DNA of 64,000 bases from Girardia tigrina. Lineage: Eukaryota. The notes under the pieces are model-generated. The model was not told the origin of the DNA. It made no database searches and saw only the letters and a program-made list of their open reading frames with translations. This document shows, one piece after another, positions 5,994 through 64,000 of the stretch. The first letter of the stretch is position 1, and every line of letters starts with the position of its first letter. The stretch is taken from NCBI GenBank assembly GCA_001938485.1, contig MQRK01218924.1:73017-137016 (forward strand), read 5' to 3'. Position numbers and translations under genes: made by a program.

Positions 5994-7495
5994 CTAATCG
6001 AAAACTCTTAACAAATTAGTTGAGAATGCTGTTTGAACATTGATTTTCGGATCACATGATCTTATCAACAATGCTTCACATGACACTGTCTCCCAATAAT
6101 TTTTAAAATGCTTGCACAAAATCTTAAAATCATTTATGCTCATATTACATTTACACGTTTTTATGCTCAGCAATATTACTCTTATCCCCCTTTTTGACTG
6201 TGTTCTTGGACTCTTGCAGAGATGATGGATGGGCAGTCTCTCCAATGTATGTGGCATTGCACCCATTACATGTGTATTGATAAACAATGTCCGAACACAA
6301 TCCTAAAGGAGTATGTGATTTATTACAAAACATATTCTCAACTTTAAATGATTGAGAAATAATTTTTAAATTTAAAATATTATTTGTTGATTTCAAAATC
6401 GAATTCTTGAGGTGTTTAAAACCCTCGTAAGCTTATAGTATACCCAGGTATAAAGCAGTTTTCAATGTTTAAACTATTAATTTGTTCATTATTGTTTTTT
6501 TTTCTTTTTCAATTATTTTATCTACAGTCTCACGAGTGAGTCTGTCTATGATGGACTTAGAGTAACCGTTATTATTCAATAACTTGCTCAATGTATCAAT
6601 AGTTTTAATAGATTTTGAAAACGTAGAAGAAAGAGACCAAGAGCGGTATAACAAACCTTTGATCATATTCCTTTTATATTTAAACTCACAAAAACTGGTT
6701 ATGAAGGTGTATAAACCAGTATCAATTTTCTTTCGATATATTTCAGTTTCATAATGATCATTTTTCTTTTCAATTAACAAATCAAGGAATGGTAATTTTC
6801 CGTTTATTTCCTGTTCCACTGCAAAGATTATATTTGAATGAATCGAATTCATGTAATCTTGAAAAGGAAAAACATGTTCTTGAGATTCAAAGACTAGAAA
6901 GATATCATCCACATATCTCTTATAAAGTAGTGGTTTTTTCCCAAAAAACAATTCTATTTTTTCTTCAATGGAAGAAAGAAATATAGAGGCTAACGTTGGA
7001 GCCAATGGTGAACCCATTGCAACCCCATCTATTTGTTTGTACCATTCACCATTAAATAGAAAATGAACGTTTGAAATAGCAAATGTTAAGAGTTTTCGAA
7101 AAGCAACTTCATCTAAATCAGAATTGTCCAGATTATTCTTACGCCAGAGTTCACAACATAATTCGATGGTTTCCTGTGACGAAACATTAGTAAATAGACT
7201 CGATACATCAAAGGAAACCATAAAATCATTTTCAGTTCGTATTTCAAAATTAGCAATGGAATTCACAAACACAAAACTGTCCTTACAAATAAAATCATTA
7301 GGAATGAAAGATTTTATCTTCTTGTCTAGATATTTAGCAATATTGTACTGAGATGTACGGATCATAGATAGAACCCGTCGCATTGGAACTCCATCTTTAT
7401 GTACTTTAGGAAGACCGTATTATTTTGCTGGTTGAGAACCAGATACATGAAGTAAGTCAAAAACATCCTTCGTAATGTGTCCATCATTTAAATTT
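5994..7495 (-). mobile_element. Penelope-like retroelement, 5'-truncated and decayed (RT + GIY-YIG endonuclease)
   Basis: YGLPKVHK..PMR, SFDVSSLFTNV, GVAMGSPLAP, RYVDDIF, LPFLDLLI, YRK in ORF 6469-7383. GIY-YIG IVYQYTCNGCNATYIGET and EALLI...PKIN in frameshifted ORFs 6151-6396 and 5994-6287. Confidence 0.93.
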
Positions 7496-8077: not shown

Positions 8078-10106
8078 TATAAAGAATATTTATAATTCAA
8101 ATTTAAAATATTTAAGTATCATTCTAAGTATTAATTTTAAATTTTGATGTTGATTTCAATTCCAAATAATTTTTTAAATTATTTAAATTTTGATCAGCGA
8201 ACTGAAAATTAACTAACTCCTCATAGGGATGAAAAGGATATTTATTTTTTTTTCATTGTAATTAAGTAATTCATGCTCAACAATTTAAATATAATATCAC
8301 AACATGCGTTCTTGAATATTTAAACAAAATTTTAGAATATGAAAAAACCAATAATTGTTAACGAGAAAACGATCCGAACAAATTAGGTGCACGATTCGTT
8401 GGTGTCCCGGGTTCACTGAGCTAAAATACTGTCATTTACAATTGTTTTGCATTTGAATACGTTGTAATAATAATACACATTTCATATCGTGGTGAATGAT
8501 TTGCACCAATTAAGTCAATACTCGTCATAGATTGTCAATGAATATCATTAATTATTGGATCTACAAGTTCAAACATGTTTCGAACACAAATCGATTATGA
8601 ATTTCAATAATTATCAGTTTTATTGCTTGAATCATGTTTCTGTACTTAAAAAATGTTTCTTATCTTTAATTGATTTCTGTAGACTTGAAAAAGTTCTCTT
8701 GTAACATTTAAAATTATTTTATGATTTGAATATTTTATTGTAATTATTCTTTATTTCTGAATAATTATTAAAATTTAAGTGCATTTTCATTACTTTTATG
8801 ATTTAGTAGAAAAGTAAATTTTCAAGATTTTATCTTCACAGTTTAAAAAAAAAACTTTTTTATGTTTGTTTTTTAAATATTTTTTATGGAGTATTTCTTA
8901 TGATGGTTGAATTAAAGATATTCTGTCATTGTTTTTTTACAAAATTATCATTCAAAATTTGTCATTTGATACGATATTTTTTTATTCTTAGTACAAAATG
9001 TCTTCGAATATTTGTGTTTAATTAAAGAATATGTTTTTTTAACAATCAATTATCGAAAATGAGATCTAAATTTAGCCATTTGATCATTATTTTTATTTTC
9101 TGTGATGAAATTGGTTCAATAAATTAATAAAAACGGTTTATATGAAACAATTTTGAAACAAAAGGGGTCGAAAACATTTGCAAAAAGGTTTATCTATTTA
9201 TATTTTATAATTCAAATTCAAATCAATTATTAAAATTGTTTTTTAATATCTTTACTAATTCAAACGTGAACTAACCAAAATTAGATGGAGACTAAAAATT
9301 CAAATTGGGACTATTCAAATTTAAATATAGTTTTTTCACTATAAACAATTTGAAATAAAAAATTAACGACATAATAAAATTGAAAATTATTTTTTTATTA
9401 TTATTATTACAAATAATAACATTAAATTACCTCTTAATGTAAACAATGAACAACCGTGATTTTTCATTTAAAATCGAACATCCGTCATATTTAACTCATC
9501 TTTGTATATGAGCGATATATTTTGTACATTTCACAACCGTTATATTTTTTATATTTTCAATTTTGACTTTTTAACTTTGTTAATTGATATTAAGATTGAA
9601 TCATAACGGCACTGTCTAATTTTTTTGAATTTCTTTGGCAAATTCTCTTTTAACATCAGCTTTTAAACTTGACTTAACATAAGGCTCTACGTTCAAAGTC
9701 TTAGTAATAGATTATCTCTAAATTAATTTCCATAAAATCCTGACAAGGAGAGTAATCCGTCACCGATATAAGTTTTGATTGATACATGCTTCAAGTGTTT
9801 CGAAGGTAATGACGACGATTTCTCCGACTTTCGGCTTATAATTGGTTAATAAATCAAGCCAAATAACGTATATATTTGATCCCTTACAACCAGTAGAAAA
9901 ATTTGTACAAAAACTATTTTTATCGTCTCTTTTCTCGATATAAATAAATTGAATTTTATTTCATCCATTTACATCATTGAAACACTACTAACTTTGTATT
10001 CTAAAAGTTTATGTACATCGTTAATTCTTTAATTTGATTCTCTTCATTGTTAACTTTTAGTGATTATTTATGCATACCTTTTAATGTAAACAGCATTGTA
10101 TTTAAG

Positions 10107-10457
10107 AAGGCCTCTTCCCCTCAGTGGTAGCAAAAAATTGCTGGTGCGGCATTCACCCGGGCTAATAGCTCATAGAACTTATAAGGAACTGGTTCGGTGT
10201 ATCATTATCCGAGCACTTACGTGCAAGTCATCAACAGATTATGGGCTCCGCCACTACACGTTTCCATAATTCCACTTAGAAAGTATTGCTTTTTACGGTG
10301 GTGGATTGCAAGCCACTATACTAAGTTGGTCAGAAACTCCAACCAGGCAAGCTTACAAACACTTTAGCATAGAGAAGAGATCTTAGTTTCATAGGGACAC
10401 CGCGTGGGGGGTATGTTCGTCTGGCTTAAAAACAGGTTACCAATGTAACAGGTTCCC
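10107..10457 (-). mobile_element. Short non-autonomous retroelement (SINE/SIDE-like) headed by an HDV-like ribozyme
   Basis: GC-rich island bounded by a perfect 10-bp direct repeat TGTATTTAAG (10097-10106 and 10458-10467). No TIRs, no ORF in the track, ribozyme fold begins at base 1 on the - strand. Confidence 0.75.
10355..10457 (-). ncRNA. HDV-like (nested double-pseudoknot) self-cleaving ribozyme, probably partly decayed
   Basis: Hand fold: P1 GGGAAC/GUCCCU (G1-U wobble, one A-C mismatch); J1/2 hairpin GUUAC-AUUG-GUAAC; P2 ACGAACAU/GUGUUUGU (8 bp); P3 ACC/GGU; L3 CCCCACGC; imperfect P4; J4/2 GCUAAA with putative catalytic C at 10367. The expected P1.1 G is A in this copy. Confidence 0.7.
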
Positions 10458-11203
10458 TGTATTTAAGTATAGTCCTGAACACTATGTATAAACTGAAATT
10501 ATGTGATTTTCTCGAAATGTTTCTCGATTTAATCAATTCACACCTTCCTTAATTTGACTTTAATTAATCTCACTTTGAATTTATTTTTCAATAGAAGATT
10601 TTCACCTAAAATGAAAATTCCGATTTAATAAATATTAAGAGTAAATTTTAAAATGGAAATATTTTTAGTACATTATTCTTTCGAATTTTTGATATTTTCT
10701 AATCTATACCCAGTGTTAGGGTATGTCATTTAATGTGCTTTTCCTCGATATGACAGATACAGTTTTTCATTTATAATTTTTCATAATGCAACATTATGTT
10801 GAAGTAATATACTAAACAAATCACTACTGTTTTGCCAAGATAATCATTTTACTTATGCCAAACATTTTTGAAGTAGTATTAAATTAAAATTTAAAATTAA
10901 AATATTATAACGTTTTTATATGTTCGCTGTGTTGTCTCTTGTCTCTTTGTTGTTCTGAGTGAAATTTTTCAATCCTTTTTTGGTTCTTTCAAGTACAGAT
11001 AGAGTTCTGAAATTTTTAAGATACCTTAGAATCAGAAGACAATGAGTTATTTGAGAATTTATAGTTAGCTAAACTTTGTTTTTGATATAATTGTGATCGA
11101 TTGAATTTTTGTTTACAATAAAAACAAACAAATCACTCATACATAAAATACTGTAATAATATGCTTTTCAGTAAACGATAAAAATCCTTATATCCTATTT
11201 ATA

Positions 11204-12488
11204 CGTAGTGCGTTCAACAAGTACCCTTAGGTAAAAAAATTTAAATGTCAAATTTTAGTTTTTTTGCGTGATTAAATAAATGAATATCAGTTTTAATTCC
11301 AGTAATTGTTTTATTTTATCAAACTCAATAAAATTTTTACTGTGACATTTTGAATTTTCGTCAGTGCAATGATTTCAGGCGTTGAATATCGCCGCGTCAT
11401 CAAGTTCTTTGTGCTGCAGAAGAAGACTTGCAGTGAAATCTGTTATCCTTTGCAGTCAACTTAACTACATGACTCTGATAGCTGTTAAATAGTTGTTCAG
11501 AAAGTTTTAAGGTCCGTGGCACCTTAGTTTTTTGATCAAGAAAACGCAAGTCGGCCACAAGAAATTTTTGACACAGTTGATAAAAAATTTTAGAAGATGG
11601 CCCAAGAACAGCATCGAATTACAATGTAAATGCTGTCACGAAGGCTCAACATAAGTGTTGGTACAATCCACGCCGAATTGAAATCCATGGGAAACAGGAA
11701 AAGGTTTCCATATTCTTACCTAGCTTCTTGACTGGTGAAATGTTGCGAAACCGTTTGGAGTGCAGTTAGAAAAACTTGAATCTGTGGGAACAGAATGGTC
11801 AGACTTTCCTGGCAAATTTAATTACGGAGGATGAAATCCCACTCAGTATGTATTTGTCTGAAACAAAGCGTGAGACAGGAGAGGGAAAACTGCCTGGAGA
11901 GATGCCATCTTTGAAGATGTGAACTCGGACAAGTCATGGATGATTCATGATACTTTCCTTTTTCTGGGATCATAAAGATGTTATTCTTATGGTTTTCGCG
12001 GAAAAAGACATCACCATCAACGCTGCCTATTACAACCAACCAAGTGGTAACCGGCAAAAAGAATAGATAGAAACAGAAGAACATGCCATTATGGTTTCTC
12101 CACGACAATACGCCAGTGCACACATCGGACATTTCTCGGGCAACAATTGAAGGTTTTGGATTAGTACTTGTGGATCATCCACCGTACAGCCCAGATTTGA
12201 CGCCTAGCTATTTTTACATCTTCAGACACACAAAGAAGCACTTGAGAGGCATCCCGTTAGGATCTAAAAACTATTTGGAGGTTGCCGTGGAGGATTTCTT
12301 CGTACATAACCCCCATAATTTTTCAAAAAGGTGTTTTCTGAGTTGATTATTCGTTAGCTGAAGTATGTGAAGCAAAACGGACATTAAGTTAAAAATGATG
12401 CCTATATGCGTTAGGCTTGTTGTGTTATAAAATGACTCTTTGTAATTCATTTTCTTTGTCAGACCGGGTACTTATTGAACTCACCATG
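11204..12488 (+). mobile_element. mariner transposon, full length, highly degenerate
   Basis: TA|cgtagtgcgttcaacaagtaccc ... gggtacttattgaactcaccatg|TA. Motifs ITEDE, FLHDNTPVH, HPPYSPDL; many stops. Confidence 0.88.
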
Positions 12489-32014: not shown

Positions 32015-33226
32015 TTAGGTTAGAAACAAAGTTCTTGCACAAATTTTATTACAACTTTTATGTACAACGAAACAATGCAGCAAAAGGAACATATCAATCA
32101 TCAATGTAATTACCGTTATTTTCGAACACCTGTTTCCAACGACGGGTAGATCATGGATACCTTTGTTGTAAAATTCAACTGGTTTGCTTTTGAGGAAGTC
32201 TCCAACTGCAGTTTTAAATTCATGGAATAAGTGGAAGTCTGTTGGTGCCAGGTCGGGCGAGTACGGTGGGCGAGGGAGAACTTCCCACTCCAGCTCCAGA
32301 AGTTTTTTACGGGTGAGATTTGCAACGTGTGGTCGGGAGTTGTCATGAAGAAACATGACATCAGTCAATTCTGGTCTTGTTTGTGCAATCGCGTCTGCCA
32401 CCCGTTGCAGTTGTTGACTGTATAATTGAGCGTTGATGGACTGATTGCGTTCCAACATTTCCCAGTGAATCACGCCCTTTACATCCCACCAGACACAAAC
32501 CATGAGCTTCTTTTGATGCAGGTCGGTCTTTGTCTGAGGTTATACAGTTGTAGCCTTGTTTGTCCAGCTTCTTCTGCGTGTCATGTTCGAGTACAGACAC
32601 TATCTCTCATCTGAAGTAACCAATTTGTTCAGACAATCTAAACGACGCTTCTTGGACAGTAGTGTCGTGCGGCGTTGACGGTCGAAGTCGGTTAGTTGGT
32701 GTGGGACCCATACGTCCAGTTTGCTGACTTTGCCAATTTCCTCCAAGTGATGCAAAATGGCAGTATGGTAGAAGCGAAACTTCTCAGCCATCTCATGTGA
32801 TGTCAGGTGTGGATCACTTTCGACACAGGCGCACAAACGATCATTGTCAATAAGTGAGGGTCAACCACTCCTTGGCTGATCCTTGAGATCGAATTGACCA
32901 CGCTGAAACTTCTTAAACCAATCGTAGGCTGTGCGATGGCCAATTGTGCCTTCTCCAAATGCTTGGTTGATACGCCGTTCCGAGGCACCAGCTTTTAGCC
33001 CGGACTTGTAATCATACAGTAATATAGTACGTTGCTGTTCATGAGAGATTTCATTTTATCGGCCATATTTGAAAATTTAGATATCTGAAATTATGAAAAT
33101 ATACAATTAAAAAATATTGCATTTACTTATATATAAATCAATAAAACAATAAATGTATATTGTTGCATTGTTTCGTTGAATATCATTGTTAATAAAAGTT
33201 GTGCGAGAACTTTGTTTCCAACCTGT
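32015..33226 (-). mobile_element. mariner DD34D transposon, full length, degenerate
   Basis: TA|ttaggttagaaacaaagttcttgcac ... gtgcgagaactttgtttccaacctgt|TA. WVPHQL, TSDE, HDNSRPH-(34)-D, YSPDLAPTD. Confidence 0.93.
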
Positions 33227-33761
33227 TAGTTCCGTCTAATGGAAAGAAAATACTTCTATTCTTCAAACATAACGAAAACTAAATCAAGAAAATGTTCTGA
33301 AGTTCTGTAAAATTATGAAAAACCATAGATCGACTCTATCTAACAAAATGACACCAATATTGTGTTCTAAAAGGAGGGAGCTTTTGCCCACGCGTAAAGA
33401 TTGATCCAAAATGGGCTTGAGAAAAAACATACAATATAAAAAGAGGTGATTATTATATCTATCCCATAAATCTCCGTTTCAAAGTATTATTCACATTCAT
33501 TCGTTTTTTTTGTTTTTTAAACTTAATTTCGTCAGTTTCTGATATGAAGTTTTTATTCTAGATAAAATACATTTTTTTCTAAAAATTTTTATTAACAAAA
33601 TTCATAAACCTCATTGATTTTTTTTCAACTTATTATTTTCCACATCGATATCTCACAAATGTCATAAAAGTAATTTTCTTTTCAAATCGAGATTTTGTGG
33701 TAAGAAATTAAAATTTTATGATGTAAGGTAGAAGAAAGAAATCATTTGATTTTTTTGTCAG

Positions 33762-44782: not shown

Positions 44783-45546
44783 CAGGATGACGCAAAATAA
44801 ACTCCAAGGTACTTTTCTATTGGATCTTTTTATCCACCTACTTTTTTATAGGTAAAGTATACATTTTTAGAATCCTGAGCGTTGCCAAATTCTGATGGTA
44901 TATAAAAAAATCGAAAAAAAACATCAAAAATTAAAAAAAATTTTTGGACGAAAAATTTAACAAGCTTTTTATTCCATAAAAGCATAACAACATTTAATTA
45001 TCGAATTTCAACTTGTCCTCCATCTCTAAGAAAACATTCATGCAAACGTCGTCTGTAGTCGGCCACAACGCGTTCACGATGTGCGCGGTCTCCACGGATT
45101 TCATTGGCAACTCCTTCAATCGCTGCTCTCAACTCTTCGAGTGTGCTTGGACGTTGTTCGCGATGATAAATTCGACCTTTCATGTAGCCCCACAACCAAT
45201 AGTCACATGCTGTAAGATCTGGCGAGCGAGGCAGCCATGTAACTGGAGCAGAATGCGCCCGTGTTCTGCGACCTATCCATCGATTTGGAAACTGTTGACC
45301 CAACAATTCAAGAAAATCTCCAAGAATGTGTGGCGGAGCGCCGTCATGCTGCTCAATGAGAGAATTGAAATTCGGCCAAGTTTGAAGCTCTGGAATAACG
45401 TGCTCTTGATTCAATTCAGTCATCCAACGACCATTGATTCTGCGCTCATTTCCAGGATTCTAAATATGTATACTTTACCTATAAAAAGTAGGTGGATAAA
45501 AAGATCCAATAGAAAAGTACCTTGGAGTTTATTTTGTGTCACCCTG
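44783..45546 (-). mobile_element. Internally deleted rosa-like Tc1/mariner element with ~95-bp TIRs and D46D catalytic spacing
   Basis: TIRs 44783-44877 and 45453-45546; TA at left, CA at right. ORF 44998-45423 HDGAPPH...WIGR...WLPRSPDLTACDYWLWGYMK. Confidence 0.9.
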
Positions 45547-55701: not shown

Positions 55702-56875
55702 ATATGTATTTAATTTAATTTAATTTAAACACACGTCTTAGGTGAGATTCAAATTAAATGCAAGCACGTTTCCGACAAAAGTCTGAAAAGGCTCCATAGT
55801 TCAGTGATTTAAAGTCTACCTTTGTCGCGCTGACGGCAGAGTTGAGCTCTACAAGGAGAGTCAACTAGGTGCTGGTGCCTGCTTGGTGTTCAGCAGTGCC
55901 ATCTCTCAGAATTTCTTCGTTGGAGATGTACAAGAGGTGTTGGTTGTAATGTTTTGCGCATAGTTCGATGTTTCGCCTAGCTGTTCTGGTGGCGTATGCT
56001 GCGATGTCGTCGTCATTCCATCCAATGGCGGCGAGGAGGAAGTTGTTGGTTGGGTGCCATCGGCCGAGGCTACCCACGACGAAGGGGAAGATTGAGACTT
56101 CGGATTTTCCTTTGGATTGGATGAGATCAAGTTGGGCGTTTAGGTATTTATCACAGGCTCTGTCATATGCGTGATTGAAAGTGTCCTCTGCGTCCCAGGG
56201 GCTTTTGACCTCGATGATCCAGGCTGTACGACCAAAATCGACGAGAATGTCGAAGATGAAAAGTTTTCCATCGGGCATCTGTGTTCGACACTTACGGTGT
56301 TGTTGCCGAACTTTTTGCTGATGAATTTGGCTTGGTCGTTTTTGATTTTATCTTGTTTCATGATTCCAAATGGGAGGGAGTAGTCGCATCCGTTTATGAT
56401 GTGTATTTTCATAGAACCTACGTGTTTACCTTCGATTTGCACGTCGGTGGTGTTGTTGGAGTAAAGGCTTTTAAGAACGTTGAGGAGGATAGGATCAATG
56501 CCTAAGTGGTTGAGGATTTGAAAGAGGAGGACGTGTTGAACGCTGCCGTAAGCGTCTTTGATATCGCCGAAGAAGAAGGAGGCTTGTTTAGGAGTATCTT
56601 TACAGTTAAGGCAAGCAAGTCTTACATAGTCGCGAATAATGTTGACTACAGCATTGTGGTCATGGCATCCTTCGAGGGTCCCTACAGCTTTTTGGTTAGG
56701 GGAGATAATGTTCTTATCGAGGATCCAGTCGGTGTAGTAGTAGCCAATGAAAGAGACGGCTGCTTTTGGAATTGTGTTTGATTTGGTGATGGGTCTCCAG
56801 GCGTTTGGAAGGAGGAGTTCGCTGGAGGATTTGCCATTTTTGGGAATCATGGTGGTGGCAGATTTCTTCAAAGAA
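55702..56875 (-). mobile_element. R2/NeSL-type non-LTR retrotransposon with restriction-like endonuclease; 5'-truncated and internally deleted
   Basis: RT start WRPIT..NTIPK, SPNQKA...GCHDH, DIKDAYGSV fused directly to the knuckle tail HIINGC, then RLE IIEVKSPWD...DKY...FVVGSLGRWHP. 3' UTR ends in (AATTA)n next to (TA)n and an N gap. Confidence 0.85.
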
Positions 56876-57608
56876 ACTCTATAAAAACATCCATATGACT
56901 CTAGTCGTGCTCATCAACTTGAATTTTTACATTCTAAGGAAAACTATTTTTAAGATTGAATATTATTTGATAGTATTTATTTTTAAAAATAATCTTTAAT
57001 AAGTACTTTGTAAAAATTATTGATTCAAACTTATCTTAAAACAAAAGGACCAATAACGTCAGTGTTATTCCAAAAATTGTGAAATCTTTAATATTGTTAC
57101 GGTTGAAAGATCTATCAAAAGTTAATCGAACTTTAATTTAACACTCGATCCATCTTTTAGGTTTCAAAAATTAATTGGAATAGATTTAATTTATCACATG
57201 GAAATGCGGTTGTTTTCTTTCGGAACTGATATTTGATAAATCTGGAACTTTTTAAAAAAAGATTTGAATTTCTCAGAAACATCAAATTTGCAAATTTATT
57301 AAAATTTGGAAATGCTTTTTTTGTAATTATTTGATAACTGATGTCCGTTTATCCATTGATTTATTCTTTGAGTAGGCTTTTGGTTCTACCGAGGATTTTA
57401 TTTTGATATAGTCAAATAAAGGATTGCCATCAGTATCAAATATGTGATAAATATCGGTATCCATCCAGCAATGTAACTCATTGTAATAATATATTCTAAC
57501 ACATTATTTTTCTATCATTCATTATTTCTATAAATATATAATAAGTCTAATTAAAATGAAACATAATCTCATATTATATATTCTAATGACTAGTGAAATT
57601 TGTTGCAG

Positions 57609-60869: not shown

Positions 60870-61337
60870 ATCGAACAACACTACAGAGTTTTTGTGAGGA
60901 AAAATATAGAGAGGATATGGTAAAAGGCCTTGTTCACAGAGTTCGGAATTTGTCGTCAAGTTTTGAAATTGCAAATCACGGTTTAAATATTCTTAGAAGG
61001 CGCTTGAGGGACAATATGTATACAGACAAGCAAATAAAACAACATTATGGTAACATTAGACAAATTATGTACGGATGTACGAGTTAAGAAACAATTAAAA
61101 GAAGAAAATACTGAAGAATGCAAACAAATCATTAAAATACCATATTCTGAAGGATTTATAGCGTTTAAGAAGAGTATTTGTAGAACAATAAGTAGTGCTA
61201 AAGTAGTCTCTGTCACATCCAAAGTTCAAAGTTTCCTCTCAAACAAATCGAAAACAGTTTGTGATTTGCAAGCTAATCTGGTATATAAATTTAATTGTCA
61301 CGGGTGTCAAAACTCGTACATCGGAGAGACGTTCAGA
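60870..61337 (+). mobile_element. Penelope-like element fragment (post-RT linker and GIY-YIG start)
   Basis: MVKGLVHRVRNLSS, KIPY, NLVYKFNCHGCQNSYIGET; related to the copy at 5994-7495. Confidence 0.85.
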
Positions 61338-62813
61338 GCGATGATGAAACATGAAGATGGAAGTTTCCTTGAGATCAACAAACTAGCCTATGCTGACGAC
61401 CTCTGCCTCATCGACACGGACTGGAACAACCTGATAAATAATTTGAACATTTTAAATGCATCCTTTTTAGATTTAGGTCTCAAGATGAACATCGGTAAAA
61501 CCAATGTTTTGAACCTAAACGGAGATACTCGGATCCTTACTGCTGGACACCAGTTTGAGGCCGGTATTGAGTGGGTCTCTAGCTTTTGTTAGCTAGGATC
61601 CACGATCTCTTCAGGAAATGTGGCTGCGGAAGTTAAAAAAAGAATTAAGAAAGGAACCCAGAAGATCCGGAACCTGAGACCAGTGCTGAAGATCTCCAAA
61701 CTGAGTATTAGGAATAAGAAGAAATTAATCAACGCATGCATATTCTCCGTAGTCTACTACGGCTGTAAAAGCTGGAGAACTACGGGCAAGAACATTAAGA
61801 AATTGCATGCCCTTCATAACCTATGTACGCCCATAGTTAGGAAGAAACACAATATTGAAAAGATCCGTATGAACATCCTGGACATTGGACTCCCACATCC
61901 CATGGATATTATCGCGAGTAAAAGGCTTACTTTCCACAGTAAGCCGGAAACTTCAGAGGTGTACGAGACAATCAAACGGAAGGGAGAAATACAAATGGGG
62001 AAAAAGATCAGTGGGAGAAAGAAGCAATCAATTTCGGAATGTCTTTGAGTGGACATACAATGGCTATTTGGGGATGATGCGGTGTATGGAGATTTCATTA
62101 ACCGCATCATTCACAGAGATCCTACTGCATCGAGGGAAACATACATAAACTCCTTAATTCGATTAGGAAGACTCAATAGGGCAAGAGCAACTGTACCGAA
62201 GCTGATCAACGAGAGAGACAAACGTCACCAATGTCCAGTAGAAAGATGCTACAAGGAGTTTGCCGAAAAGAAGGAGCTGAACAGACACTTGAAAATGGAC
62301 CACGCGGTGTCCGCTTCCGCTAATCCTGATCAGCTCAATGACACACAACAACAGCAATTGCCATTCCCATGTACACTATGTAAAAAGTCGTACAAAATGA
62401 AGGGGTGGCTGACAAAGCACCTCTACCTGGATCATAAATTGGAAGAGACAGAAGAAATTGGAGAACCGACAATGACACCAGCGCAAACCAGTACAACAAA
62501 TACCACAGAAGAAATAGTCGTAGAAAACCTCAACATTCCAGGCAACCAGATTCAATCCGTGACGGACCCCCCAACTATCTCGACGGCGGTGGAAGAAGCG
62601 ATAGGTACTGAAGAAACACATCTGACTTTTAGGATTGCAGATCTAAGTGCAAGGGGTAGTTCAGATGTCCCTTTCGCGGCTGTAAGAAGTCCAGGAATAC
62701 AGCCAAAGGTATGCAGAACCATGGATATACAACCCATGGGTGGTCGTTTCTCACAGGGAAGCCGAAAAGATCTCGGAGACCGAAACTATCCGACCCCGTA
62801 GGAGGCCTATCGG
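61338..62813 (+). mobile_element. 5'-truncated RTE-like LINE with C-terminal C2H2 zinc fingers; runs into the N gap
   Basis: LAYADDL, GLKMNIGKT, F.*LGSTI, EVKKRI, SVVYYGCKSW, then CPVERC-12-HLKMDH, CTLC-12-HLYLDH and (shifted frame) CPFRGC-12-HGYTTH. In-frame stops present. Confidence 0.82.
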
Positions 62814-64000
62814 NNNNNNNNNNNNNNNNNNNNNNNNNNNNNNNNNNNNNNNNNNNNNNNNNNNNNNNNNNNNNNNNNNNNNNNNNNNNNNNNNNNNNNN
62901 NNNNNNNNNNNNNNNNNNNNNNNNNNNNNNNNNNNNNNNNNNNNNNNNNNNNNNNNNNNNNNNNNNNNNNNNNNNNNNNNNNNNNNNNNNNNNNNNNNNN
63001 NNNNNNNNNNNNNNNNNNNNNNNNNNNNNNNNNNNNNNNNNNNNNNNNNNNNNNNNNNNNNNNNNNNNNNNNNNNNNNNNNNNNNNNNNNNNNNNNNNNN
63101 NNNNNNNNNNNNNNNNNNNNNNNNNNNNNNNNNNNNNNNNNNNNNNNNNNNNNNNNNNNNNNNNNNNNNNNNNNNNNNNNNNNNNNNNNNNNNNNNNNNN
63201 NNNNNNNNNNNNNNNNNNNNNNNNNNNNNNNNNNNNNNNNNNNNNNNNNNNNNNNNNNNNNNNNNNNNNNNNNNNNNNNNNNNNNNNNNNNNNNNNNNNN
63301 NNNNNNNNNNNNNNNNNNNNNNNNNNNNNNNNNNNNNNNNNNNNNNNNNNNNNNNNNNNNNNNNNNNNNNNNNNNNNNNNNNNNNNNNNNNNNNNNNNNN
63401 NNNNNNNNNNNNNNNNNNNNNNNNNNNNNNNNNNNNNNNNNNNNNNNNNNNNNNNNNNNNNNNNNNNNNNNNNNNNNNNNNNNNNNNNNNNNNNNNNNNN
63501 NNNNNNNNNNNNNNNNNNNNNNNNNNNNNNNNNNNNNNNNNNNNNNNNNNNNNNNNNNNNNNNNNNNNNNNNNNNNNNNNNNNNNNNNNNNNNNNNNNNN
63601 NNNNNNNNNNNNNNNNNNNNNNNNNNNNNNNNNNNNNNNNNNNNNNNNNNNNNNNNNNNNNNNNNNNNNNNNNNNNNNNNNNNNNNNNNNNNNNNNNNNN
63701 NNNNNNNNNNNNNNNNNNNNNNNNNNNNNNNNNNNNNNNNNNNNNNNNNNNNNNNNNNNNNNNNNNNNNNNNNNNNNNNNNNNNNNNNNNNNNNNNNNNN
63801 NNNNNNNNNNATGATGATTTTTTAAAAATCGAAACATGTCCAATAGTTGTATTAAAAAAGCTTTAATCAAATTATATTTTCGAAATACTAAACTTGCGTT
63901 CACAAGACTCAATATATATATATATATATGTATAAAATGCTAATTTTGACTAGTTTGAAATGATTTATAAAATAATGTATAGCCGATTTTATTTTTATTC

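Follow-up and report, generated by a model that had tools for sequence, protein, structure and literature searches.

The segment at 10,355–10,457 on the minus strand of the window (the whole 64,000-nucleotide stretch of Girardia tigrina DNA analyzed here) is most probably the decayed 5′ head of a non-coding retroelement of ~350 bp, the intact heads of which are predicted to be HDV-like ribozymes that would free the element RNA before its first nucleotide, G+1. A probability of roughly 80% was assigned to this reading, which was derived from sequence comparisons. The element belongs to a dispersed family having target site duplications (TSDs), a boundary at G+1, a covarying fold, homologous heads in LINEs, and copies in 28S arrays.

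The focal copy (10,109–10,457, minus strand) is a non-coding interspersed copy of family A within an A/B lineage, as judged from dispersed relatives with common ends. Exact 10-bp direct repeats (10,097–10,106 and 10,458–10,467) enclose a segment of 351 bp, and the repeat extends to 12 bp with one mismatch. In element orientation, the 5′ copy of the TSD is at 10,458–10,469 and the 3′ copy, with the single mismatch at 10,107, at 10,097–10,108. G10457 was placed by the direct-repeat search as the first base within the TSD, in agreement with the initial annotation, which had also parsed 10,457–10,355 (minus strand) as an HDV-order fold; the letters and coordinates of that parse matched those obtained here.

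The focal copy has the nested order P1-P2-P3-L3-P3′-P1′-P4-J4/2-P2′. The P1 5′ strand (10,452–10,457; fold, descriptor, and decay comparison), with the predicted cut 5′ of G10457, is paired with the P1 3′ strand (10,393–10,398; descriptor and alignment) as 10,457–10,452/10,398–10,393, the first pair being G·U and the fourth an A·C mismatch with G>A at 10,454. J1/2 (10,421–10,451; sequence and repeat search) contains a 5-bp hairpin (10,449–10,445/10,440–10,436). P2, formed by 10,413–10,420 and 10,355–10,362 (both from descriptor and alignment), is paired at all eight positions, and the changes at 10,420 and 10,417 preserve pairing. The P3 region (10,399–10,412; family alignment) consists of P3 (10,412–10,410/10,401–10,399) and L3 (10,409–10,402), which has 8 nt here versus 7 in the family (a U>C change plus one additional C). 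The P1.1 partner and J1/4 (10,387–10,392; alignment) read AUGAAA instead of the family GGGAAA, and P1.1 is lost. P4 (10,369–10,386; alignment) is weaker through the loss of one base and a G>T substitution, and J4/2 (10,363–10,368; sequence and descriptor) carries the predicted catalytic C10367. ACC/GGU together with GCUAA is the antigenomic HDV pattern. The focal copy thus has the J4/2 C and a purine-led first pair (G·U), and it is devoid of P1.1, a 7-nt L3, and an intact P1. The 8-nt L3 and the weak P4 had been pointed out in the initial annotation. Its proposal of two G-to-A losses held for P1 pair 4 (10,454); the single loss proposed for P1.1 did not, since 10,392 (G>A) and 10,391 (G>T) are both changed.

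The second half of J1/2 (within 10,421–10,457) is an imperfect repeat of the first bases of the element, and in 7 of 69 A copies one repeat unit is absent and J1/2 is 14 nt long. The repeat resembles the 5′-duplication model for R2 heads given in the available part of PMC3774820.

An HDV-like descriptor, composed after the motif had been seen, matched the focal site alone in the window; among 100 dinucleotide-shuffled versions of the window one was matched, as was one among 2000 shuffled versions of the element. Plain minimum-energy folding of the focal stretch gave no signal (z 0.19) and was uninformative. The Rfam scan returned no HDV-type match in the focal copy; of five loci scanned, one (the sister copy L043) had a weak match to RF02682 (HDV-F-prausnitzii; 24.1 bits, E 0.72), below the gathering score of 44. 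No RNA holder was listed for the stretch, which weighs neither for nor against the motif. No tRNA was found in the window, and the element has no tRNA head, no ORF, and no poly-A or microsatellite tail.

Family A had 461 first-look candidates in the 1.43-Gb AT-rich genome. Scoring of 40 of them gave 41 matches including the focal copy; the other full-length or nearly full-length matches were 73–90% identical to it, and the copies have both ends in common. A loose head pattern matched the genome 581 times (reversed control: 0). The A/B lineage is colinear, with pairwise identities of 68–95%, B carrying an internal deletion. Sister families C and F have a head of the same type and a different body, and their J1/2 is 15–19 nt long versus 30 nt in A/B. 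In family C (L107–L134), the first base is a conserved C that precedes the A/B start by one position, and P1 has 7 bp and opens with C-G instead of G·U.

Element ends were counted in A/B copies selected for possessing the head: 97 exact head matches, 80 fetched, 66 with distinct flanks, 47 with a recognizable tail, and 42 with a TSD. The TSD directly touched G+1 in 32 of the 42; one or two extra bases were present in nine, and one call was spurious. The suggestion that the 5′ boundary coincides with the predicted cut site was thereby upheld. Among copies selected by the tail, 13 of 21 reached the head (lenient match), seven were truncated or disrupted, and one had the core only. The A/B TSDs are mostly 11–14 bp and start with TA(C/T). 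T occupies position −1 in 51 of 69 copies; it was considered as an element-encoded base and rejected, as it mostly belongs to the TSD. It is target sequence, because TSDs end in T (25/32) followed by A (29/32). From these bases, both target strands appear to be nicked at T^A. A hot spot lies in the bases that encode YIG in a Penelope-like GIY-YIG endonuclease (window 61,300–61,335; also L113, L128, L166, L176, L266, and L283); A/B (9/66), C, F, and LINE D (6/20) were inserted there independently, some in tandem.

The column majorities of both A and B gave the canonical fold, with a 6-bp P1 (first pair G·U), a 7-nt L3, GGG after P1′, and a paired P4. Among 71 A and 42 B copies, 64 and 39, respectively, retained the J4/2 C. 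An alignment of 39 rows (the focal copy with 12 A, 10 B, 10 C, and 6 F copies, taken from 64, 41, 20, and 6) had 92.1% paired cells, slid registers reaching at most 48%; conservation of L3, P3, and P1′ is inflated here, because many of the aligned copies were found with patterns covering those parts. Each of the two P1.1 pairs was C-G in 36 of the 39 rows. Two-sided changes affected seven pairs and 44 cells, which represent about four independent family-level events counted many times. The covariation score (0.194) was equalled by none of 500 shuffles; the count of two-sided pairs on its own was not significant (58/500). Between families, the two-sided changes were at P1 pair 6 (CG/UA), P3 pair 3 (CG/UA), P2 pair 3 (GC/AU), and P2 pair 7 (AU/GC). 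Two checks proposed with the motif when it was first described, covariation in P1, P2, and P3 and retention of P1, P1.1, P2, and the J4/2 C in the family consensus, both came out in its favor. The intact family heads are very probably HDV-like ribozymes with a source that is likely active. Their 6-bp P1 falls inside the 6–7 bp range of R2 (PMC3774820, section 16, as available).

Relative to the family majority, the focal copy has 12 differences over 103 ribozyme positions and 28 over 246 body positions; in 15 similar copies, differences amounted to 15.1% in the ribozyme and 15.3% in the body. The decay of the focal ribozyme is neutral, its rate being equal to that of the body. A copy with the same flank (L002) carries eight of these 12 changes; the four P2 changes are all among them, with pairing preserved, and G is retained at the position equivalent to 10,454. 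The four focal-only changes lie in P1 (10,454), L3 (an insertion at 10,411, and 10,408), and P1.1 (10,391). The decay counts fit the earlier suggestion of a slow or dead copy from an active family. The focal copy is probably dead, because both P1.1 guanines are changed, and its chance of activity appears slim. The insertion is also present at another locus (L002 and L003), either an allele or a duplicate, where the 5′ flank is 95% identical and the lesions differ and include an 8-nt deletion in P2/P3.

A candidate trans-acting partner, a 5′-truncated copy of the APE-RT LINE family D, is at 61,331–62,814 (plus strand; start approximate, 3′ end in an N gap), inserted in the Penelope-like endonuclease motif. 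LINE D is abundant (4391 candidates) and ~3.85 kb at full length; its TSDs are of the same kind as those of A/B, and copies L170, L174, and L176 start with a head homologous to those of A and C. An endonuclease search (50 loci) yielded the further LINE families E and G. The LINE E copy in L316 has a single 1241-aa open frame with Exo_endo_phos, RVT_1, and C2H2 fingers, APE preceding RT; Pfam detected no RNase H in LINE E. D and E end with a fixed purine-rich motif followed by the TSD, without a 3′ microsatellite or poly-A. From their motifs, we take the partner LINEs to be RTE-like. The nearest proteins were two metagenomic ones (P0001, 94%; P0002, 87%), followed by APE-RT proteins of 950–1250 aa. 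In a quick RT tree (63 of 78 rows used; without named RTE references), D, E, and G fell within a 36-row clade (SH-aLRT 99), apart from DUF6451-bearing relatives; searches of PDB and Atlas gave no clade assignment for the partner LINEs.

Intact A heads aligned to the heads of D (z 7.7) and E (z 5.2) in the ribozyme core only (0/200 shuffles); the decayed focal head had a weak alignment with D (z 2.5) and none with E. By eye, the heads of D, E, and G have HDV-like folds with different P1 and P3 sequences, and the HDV-like descriptor missed all three. D and E heads have a G·U first pair and GGG after P1′, and the D head has a U·U pair in P3. LINE G heads (L289, L296, L303, and L312), parsed by eye, are without P4 and have GCG/CGC as P3. 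The tail of family A gave no homology signal against the tails of D, E, G, G2, and X; that of sister family C gave z 4.2–8.4 against the D/E tails, and C matches D/E at both ends. As the A tail matches none of the five tails compared, mobilization by D/E-type proteins is presumptive. For a parent LINE of A/B, the tail pattern gave 33 matches, of which 30 were fetched and none had an RT frame upstream, and neither the matches to the head patterns nor the 50 endonuclease loci included a LINE with the head or tail of A. The window LINE was considered as the parent of A via a shared terminal decamer and rejected: the decamer is internal, the true end being ~90 nt further in 20 longer copies. A/B have several features of SIDEs, namely no ORF, no tRNA head, variable TSDs, and 5′-truncated copies (the 7/21 tail-selected ones without the head).

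Other features of the window were recorded. Exons with spectrin, RhoGEF, and PH domains at 33,750–59,907 (plus strand) suggest a Trio/Kalirin-like gene, the name being inferred. An internally deleted fragment at 55,865–56,910 (minus strand) includes an RT piece and a restriction endonuclease-like motif, from which it is presumably R2/NeSL-like. An RT fragment, confirmed by RVT_1, is at 6469–7419 (minus strand), and transposase fragments are at 622–1287, 11,500–12,400, 32,015–32,539, and 44,998–45,459; from motifs, these are taken to be Penelope-like and mariner/Tc1-like, respectively.

In the proposed mechanism, the element RNA would arise by read-through transcription, be cleaved by itself before G+1, and be inserted by target-primed reverse transcription in trans. 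A copy without a known promoter would be transcribed from a host promoter, by Pol II in introns and by Pol I where the copy is sense-oriented in 28S. The double pseudoknot would then form, and the J4/2 C with Mg2+ would cleave before G+1; HDV cleavage leaves a 5′-OH end. An RTE-like APE-RT protein acting in trans would nick both target strands at T^A, 11–14 bp apart, and reverse transcription would be primed on the element 3′ end, of which 1–3 bases match the target, and proceed up to G+1.

Three other explanations of the focal motif were weighed. That the focal copy is still active, or is a domesticated ribozyme, would accord with its fully paired P2, which includes one two-sided change (10,417/10,358), with its intact C10367, and with the fact that the changes common to L002 leave P1 and P2 paired. 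It was nevertheless judged very unlikely given the focal-only changes in P1, L3, and P1.1 and the body-like decay rate; moreover, the copy runs antisense to the closest gene (exons at 33.7–59.9 kb, plus strand), and in R2 and other HDV-like ribozymes a loss of activity is linked to single mismatches in P1 (PMC3774820, in the part available). The head could instead be mainly an internal Pol II promoter, like Pr77 in L1Tc, the boundary being the transcription start and the fold a relic or protective. The G+1 boundary is indeed not proof of cleavage, because the first 77 nt of L1Tc can also be a promoter; according to the available part of PMC3383444, the L1Tc head is both promoter and ribozyme. 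The start of family C, one base upstream of A/B, likewise favors a promoter, as it places a pyrimidine at +1, which is unusual for HDV cleavage. Two-sided changes nevertheless keep three helices paired, and families with differing bodies conserve L3, P1.1, and the J4/2 C, none of which a DNA promoter needs. A mainly promoter-type head was therefore considered improbable.

The cut can be placed only to within one base, given that P1 could be lengthened by a target-derived U at −1 and that family C starts one base earlier. An active ribozyme might thus cut one base upstream, U −1 pairing with the first G of GGG to give a 7-bp P1 and the extra U being hidden by annealing to the T of the second-strand nick. 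The prevalence of T at −1 noted above, the extra T or GT/TT at several junctions, and the start of family C in that register with a C-G pair all agree with such a cut, and TSD sequence is part of the terminal helix in the schistosome RTE twister ribozyme (PMC8501958, in the part available). It was regarded as unlikely, though somewhat less so than the promoter: T is in both TSD copies with target A next, so a nick preference explains it; LINEs D and E start with G·U and also have GGG after P1′; and a P1-extending −1 base lowers L1Tc cleavage in the excerpt available of PMC3185411. Cleavage immediately before G+1 remains the preferred reading.

Several elements have the TSD ACCACAGGGAT in common, and Rfam detected eukaryotic LSU rRNA in 4 of 15 loci scanned, including L323, L318, and L275 beside ACCACAGGGAT junctions. 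The 28S site is ~545 nt past a motif we take to be R2-like and ~480 nt past one we take to be R1-like. All 22 genome matches to the downstream half-site had foreign sequence upstream from the same base: two A/B tails, one C, two of D/E type, one G, 11 tails of another type that was seen in tandem with G heads, four unknown tails, and one 18S-like fusion. The upstream half-site had 33 matches, of which 30 were fetched and 17 had true 28S upstream, four of these ending at a contig end or N; all 13 informative ones exited 28S at that TSD, 12 of them into the element families described here and none directly into A/B. No rDNA unit continuous through the site was found among the half-site matches in the assembly; since empty rDNA is probably collapsed or absent there, the junction counts are not occupancy rates. 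All inspected junctions were sense-oriented relative to 28S. On one contig, a LINE, a B copy, a LINE, and a 354-bp A/B copy precede 28S in tandem, and this A/B copy is 73% identical to the focal one with its fold intact.

Some observations at these junctions stand on their own. The unassigned element tail was seen in L359, L365, L367, and L377 (4 of the 22 junctions). In L369, 18S-like sequence, presumably 18S, is fused directly to the downstream half-site upstream of position 1501 (minus strand), and L303:1032–1190 has an Rfam SSU match beside a G head. L316 (minus strand, 480–900) holds one rDNA unit with a T-rich-tailed insertion at the R2-like site plus a LINE E copy; at the 5′ junction of this copy, ~390 nt of 28S have been lost together with the LINE head.

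Two metagenomic relatives, L388 and L390 (frames of 1375–1394 aa, 25–26% best-segment identity), end at the identical 28S base (2 of 80 loci); their 28S pieces of 85–99 nt were identified by blastn at 94–98%. Rfam at the gathering score found nothing in 14 metagenomic loci. The descriptor detected no HDV fold upstream of seven near-complete metagenomic relatives (six rescanned loosely), a null result that is uninformative because the descriptor also missed the D, E, and G heads. The last ~50 bases of L389 resemble 28S ~60 nt upstream of the shared site, and blastn gave no confirmation. In the quick tree, the 28S-flanked rows were all in the 36-row clade (SH-aLRT 99), yet they were not grouped together inside it. 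At the 28S site were 1 of 66 A/B copies and 0 of 20 D copies, and LINE E was also found at other sites (L187 and L322). The 28S targeting is a preference and not exclusive, and insertion is not confined to one rDNA site. The raw excess of the 11-mer target (912 vs. 127) was rejected as a sign of rDNA targeting, since an unrelated repeat accounted for 10 of the 20 loci sampled and 28S junctions for two. An AT-rich tandem repeat of ~215 bp (L465, L466, L475, L482–L484, and L487) has a unit that holds the upstream 28S half-site and the TSD motif.

Tentatively, and at less than even odds, a single-ORF APE-RT (RTE-like) lineage in distant hosts may have evolved a preference for a single 28S site downstream of the R1/R2 sites and, like R2, ribozyme release from Pol I transcripts, the focal family being a SIDE-like parasite of it, with source copies in 28S arrays seeding decaying dispersed ones, all previously undescribed. 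A comparably serious contender, also short of an even chance, is that the 28S insertions are a by-product of the TA(C/T)-N(8-10)-T^A preference acting on multicopy sequence, with no rDNA-adapted lineage; it opposes the rDNA-lineage reading and not the ribozyme. The copy counts suit a by-product (A/B 1/66 at 28S vs. 9/66 at the Penelope-like site; D 0/20 vs. 6/20), as do the origin of the 11-mer excess, mostly from the unrelated repeat, and the scatter of the 28S-flanked rows inside the clade. It is less readily reconciled with the interruption of 22 of 22 downstream half-sites at the same base (this 28S position being the one surveyed), with the exit of 13 of 13 informative upstream half-sites at the TSD, 12 into these families, and with two metagenomic relatives at 25–26% best-segment identity ending at the identical base. 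No earlier description of the 28S preference was found in the literature searched, the scope of which lay outside Repbase, Ruminski 2011, and the Anopheles RT1/RT2 papers. Whether the preference is undescribed was put at about even odds; figure S6 of PMC4640811, a source available in part, on 28S-specific LIN families may bear on this.

Ribozyme-headed non-autonomous LINE derivatives are already known (R2 SIDEs, NARTc, and bipartite RTEs), and the 28S preference is the variant part. HDV-like ribozymes in RTEs and SINEs have been reviewed (PMC6765202 and PMC7761336, in the parts available). The Drosophila R2 SIDEs and R2/R1 hybrid SIDEs described in the available part of PMC3414825 are likewise short and non-coding, with an HDV-like head and compensatory stem changes, and are mixed with autonomous elements in 28S tandem arrays with a TSD between units; R2 SIDEs self-cleave there at 54–89%. 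A difference from R2 SIDEs is that the partner elements are APE-RT LINEs with a single ORF and belong neither to R2 (RLE) nor to R1; in addition, most copies are dispersed outside rDNA, and the 28S site differs. The bipartite RTE derivatives RTESINE, WALLSI3, and Bov-A also have no small-RNA head, a LINE-like 5′ end, and variable TSDs (PMC5786205, in part); section 23 of the same source states that bipartite non-autonomous LINEs keep the LINE 5′ end. In contrast to these derivatives, A has no poly-A or microsatellite tail, and its tail matches no LINE found. RTE families with 5′ ribozymes are reported in the available text of PMC5786205, where, among ribozyme-bearing clades, only R1, R2, and R4 are listed as target-specific.

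L1TcRz in the trypanosomatid L1Tc, NARTc, and SIDER is similar in that an HDV-like fold begins at +1 both in dispersed APE LINEs and in the short elements derived from them, with structural decay in many copies (PMC3185411 and PMC4035085, in the parts available). L1Tc/ingi differ in clade and host group, and their proteins have RNase H activity, versus none by Pfam in LINE E. With HDV-like ribozymes generally, the family shares the helix order, a 3-bp P3, a 7-nt L3, P1.1, and the J4/2 C; it differs in that A/B are below the Rfam gathering score and J4/2 is one A longer, and the focal copy is degenerate. The rDNA-specific APE elements of the R1 clade (R1, R6, R7, and Anopheles RT1/RT2) have two ORFs. 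An APE endonuclease, a 28S target, and TSD-separated tandem arrays are common to the R1 clade and the elements studied here, which differ in having one ORF instead of two. The target-specific APE groups given in the available part of PMC4640811 are Tx1 and R1.

A ribozyme at the 5′ end of a retroelement is established biology, and the focal copy is a fossil of one. The four short and three LINE families with covarying predicted HDV folds form a natural series, and with the one-base 5′ shift between A/B and C it can be tested directly whether the element boundary is set by self-cleavage. In the available part of a 2026 review (PMC13708176), RTE and Vingi writers are treated as random integrators and R2 as rDNA-targeting, and because of this treatment genome engineers would take an interest in a single-ORF APE element biased toward rDNA. 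Should the 28S preference prove real and undescribed, the R2 strategy of an rDNA target, ribozyme release, and SIDE parasites would have re-arisen in an APE lineage regarded as dispersed, and, if true, this would be an APE rDNA-targeting lineage besides R1 and Tx1.
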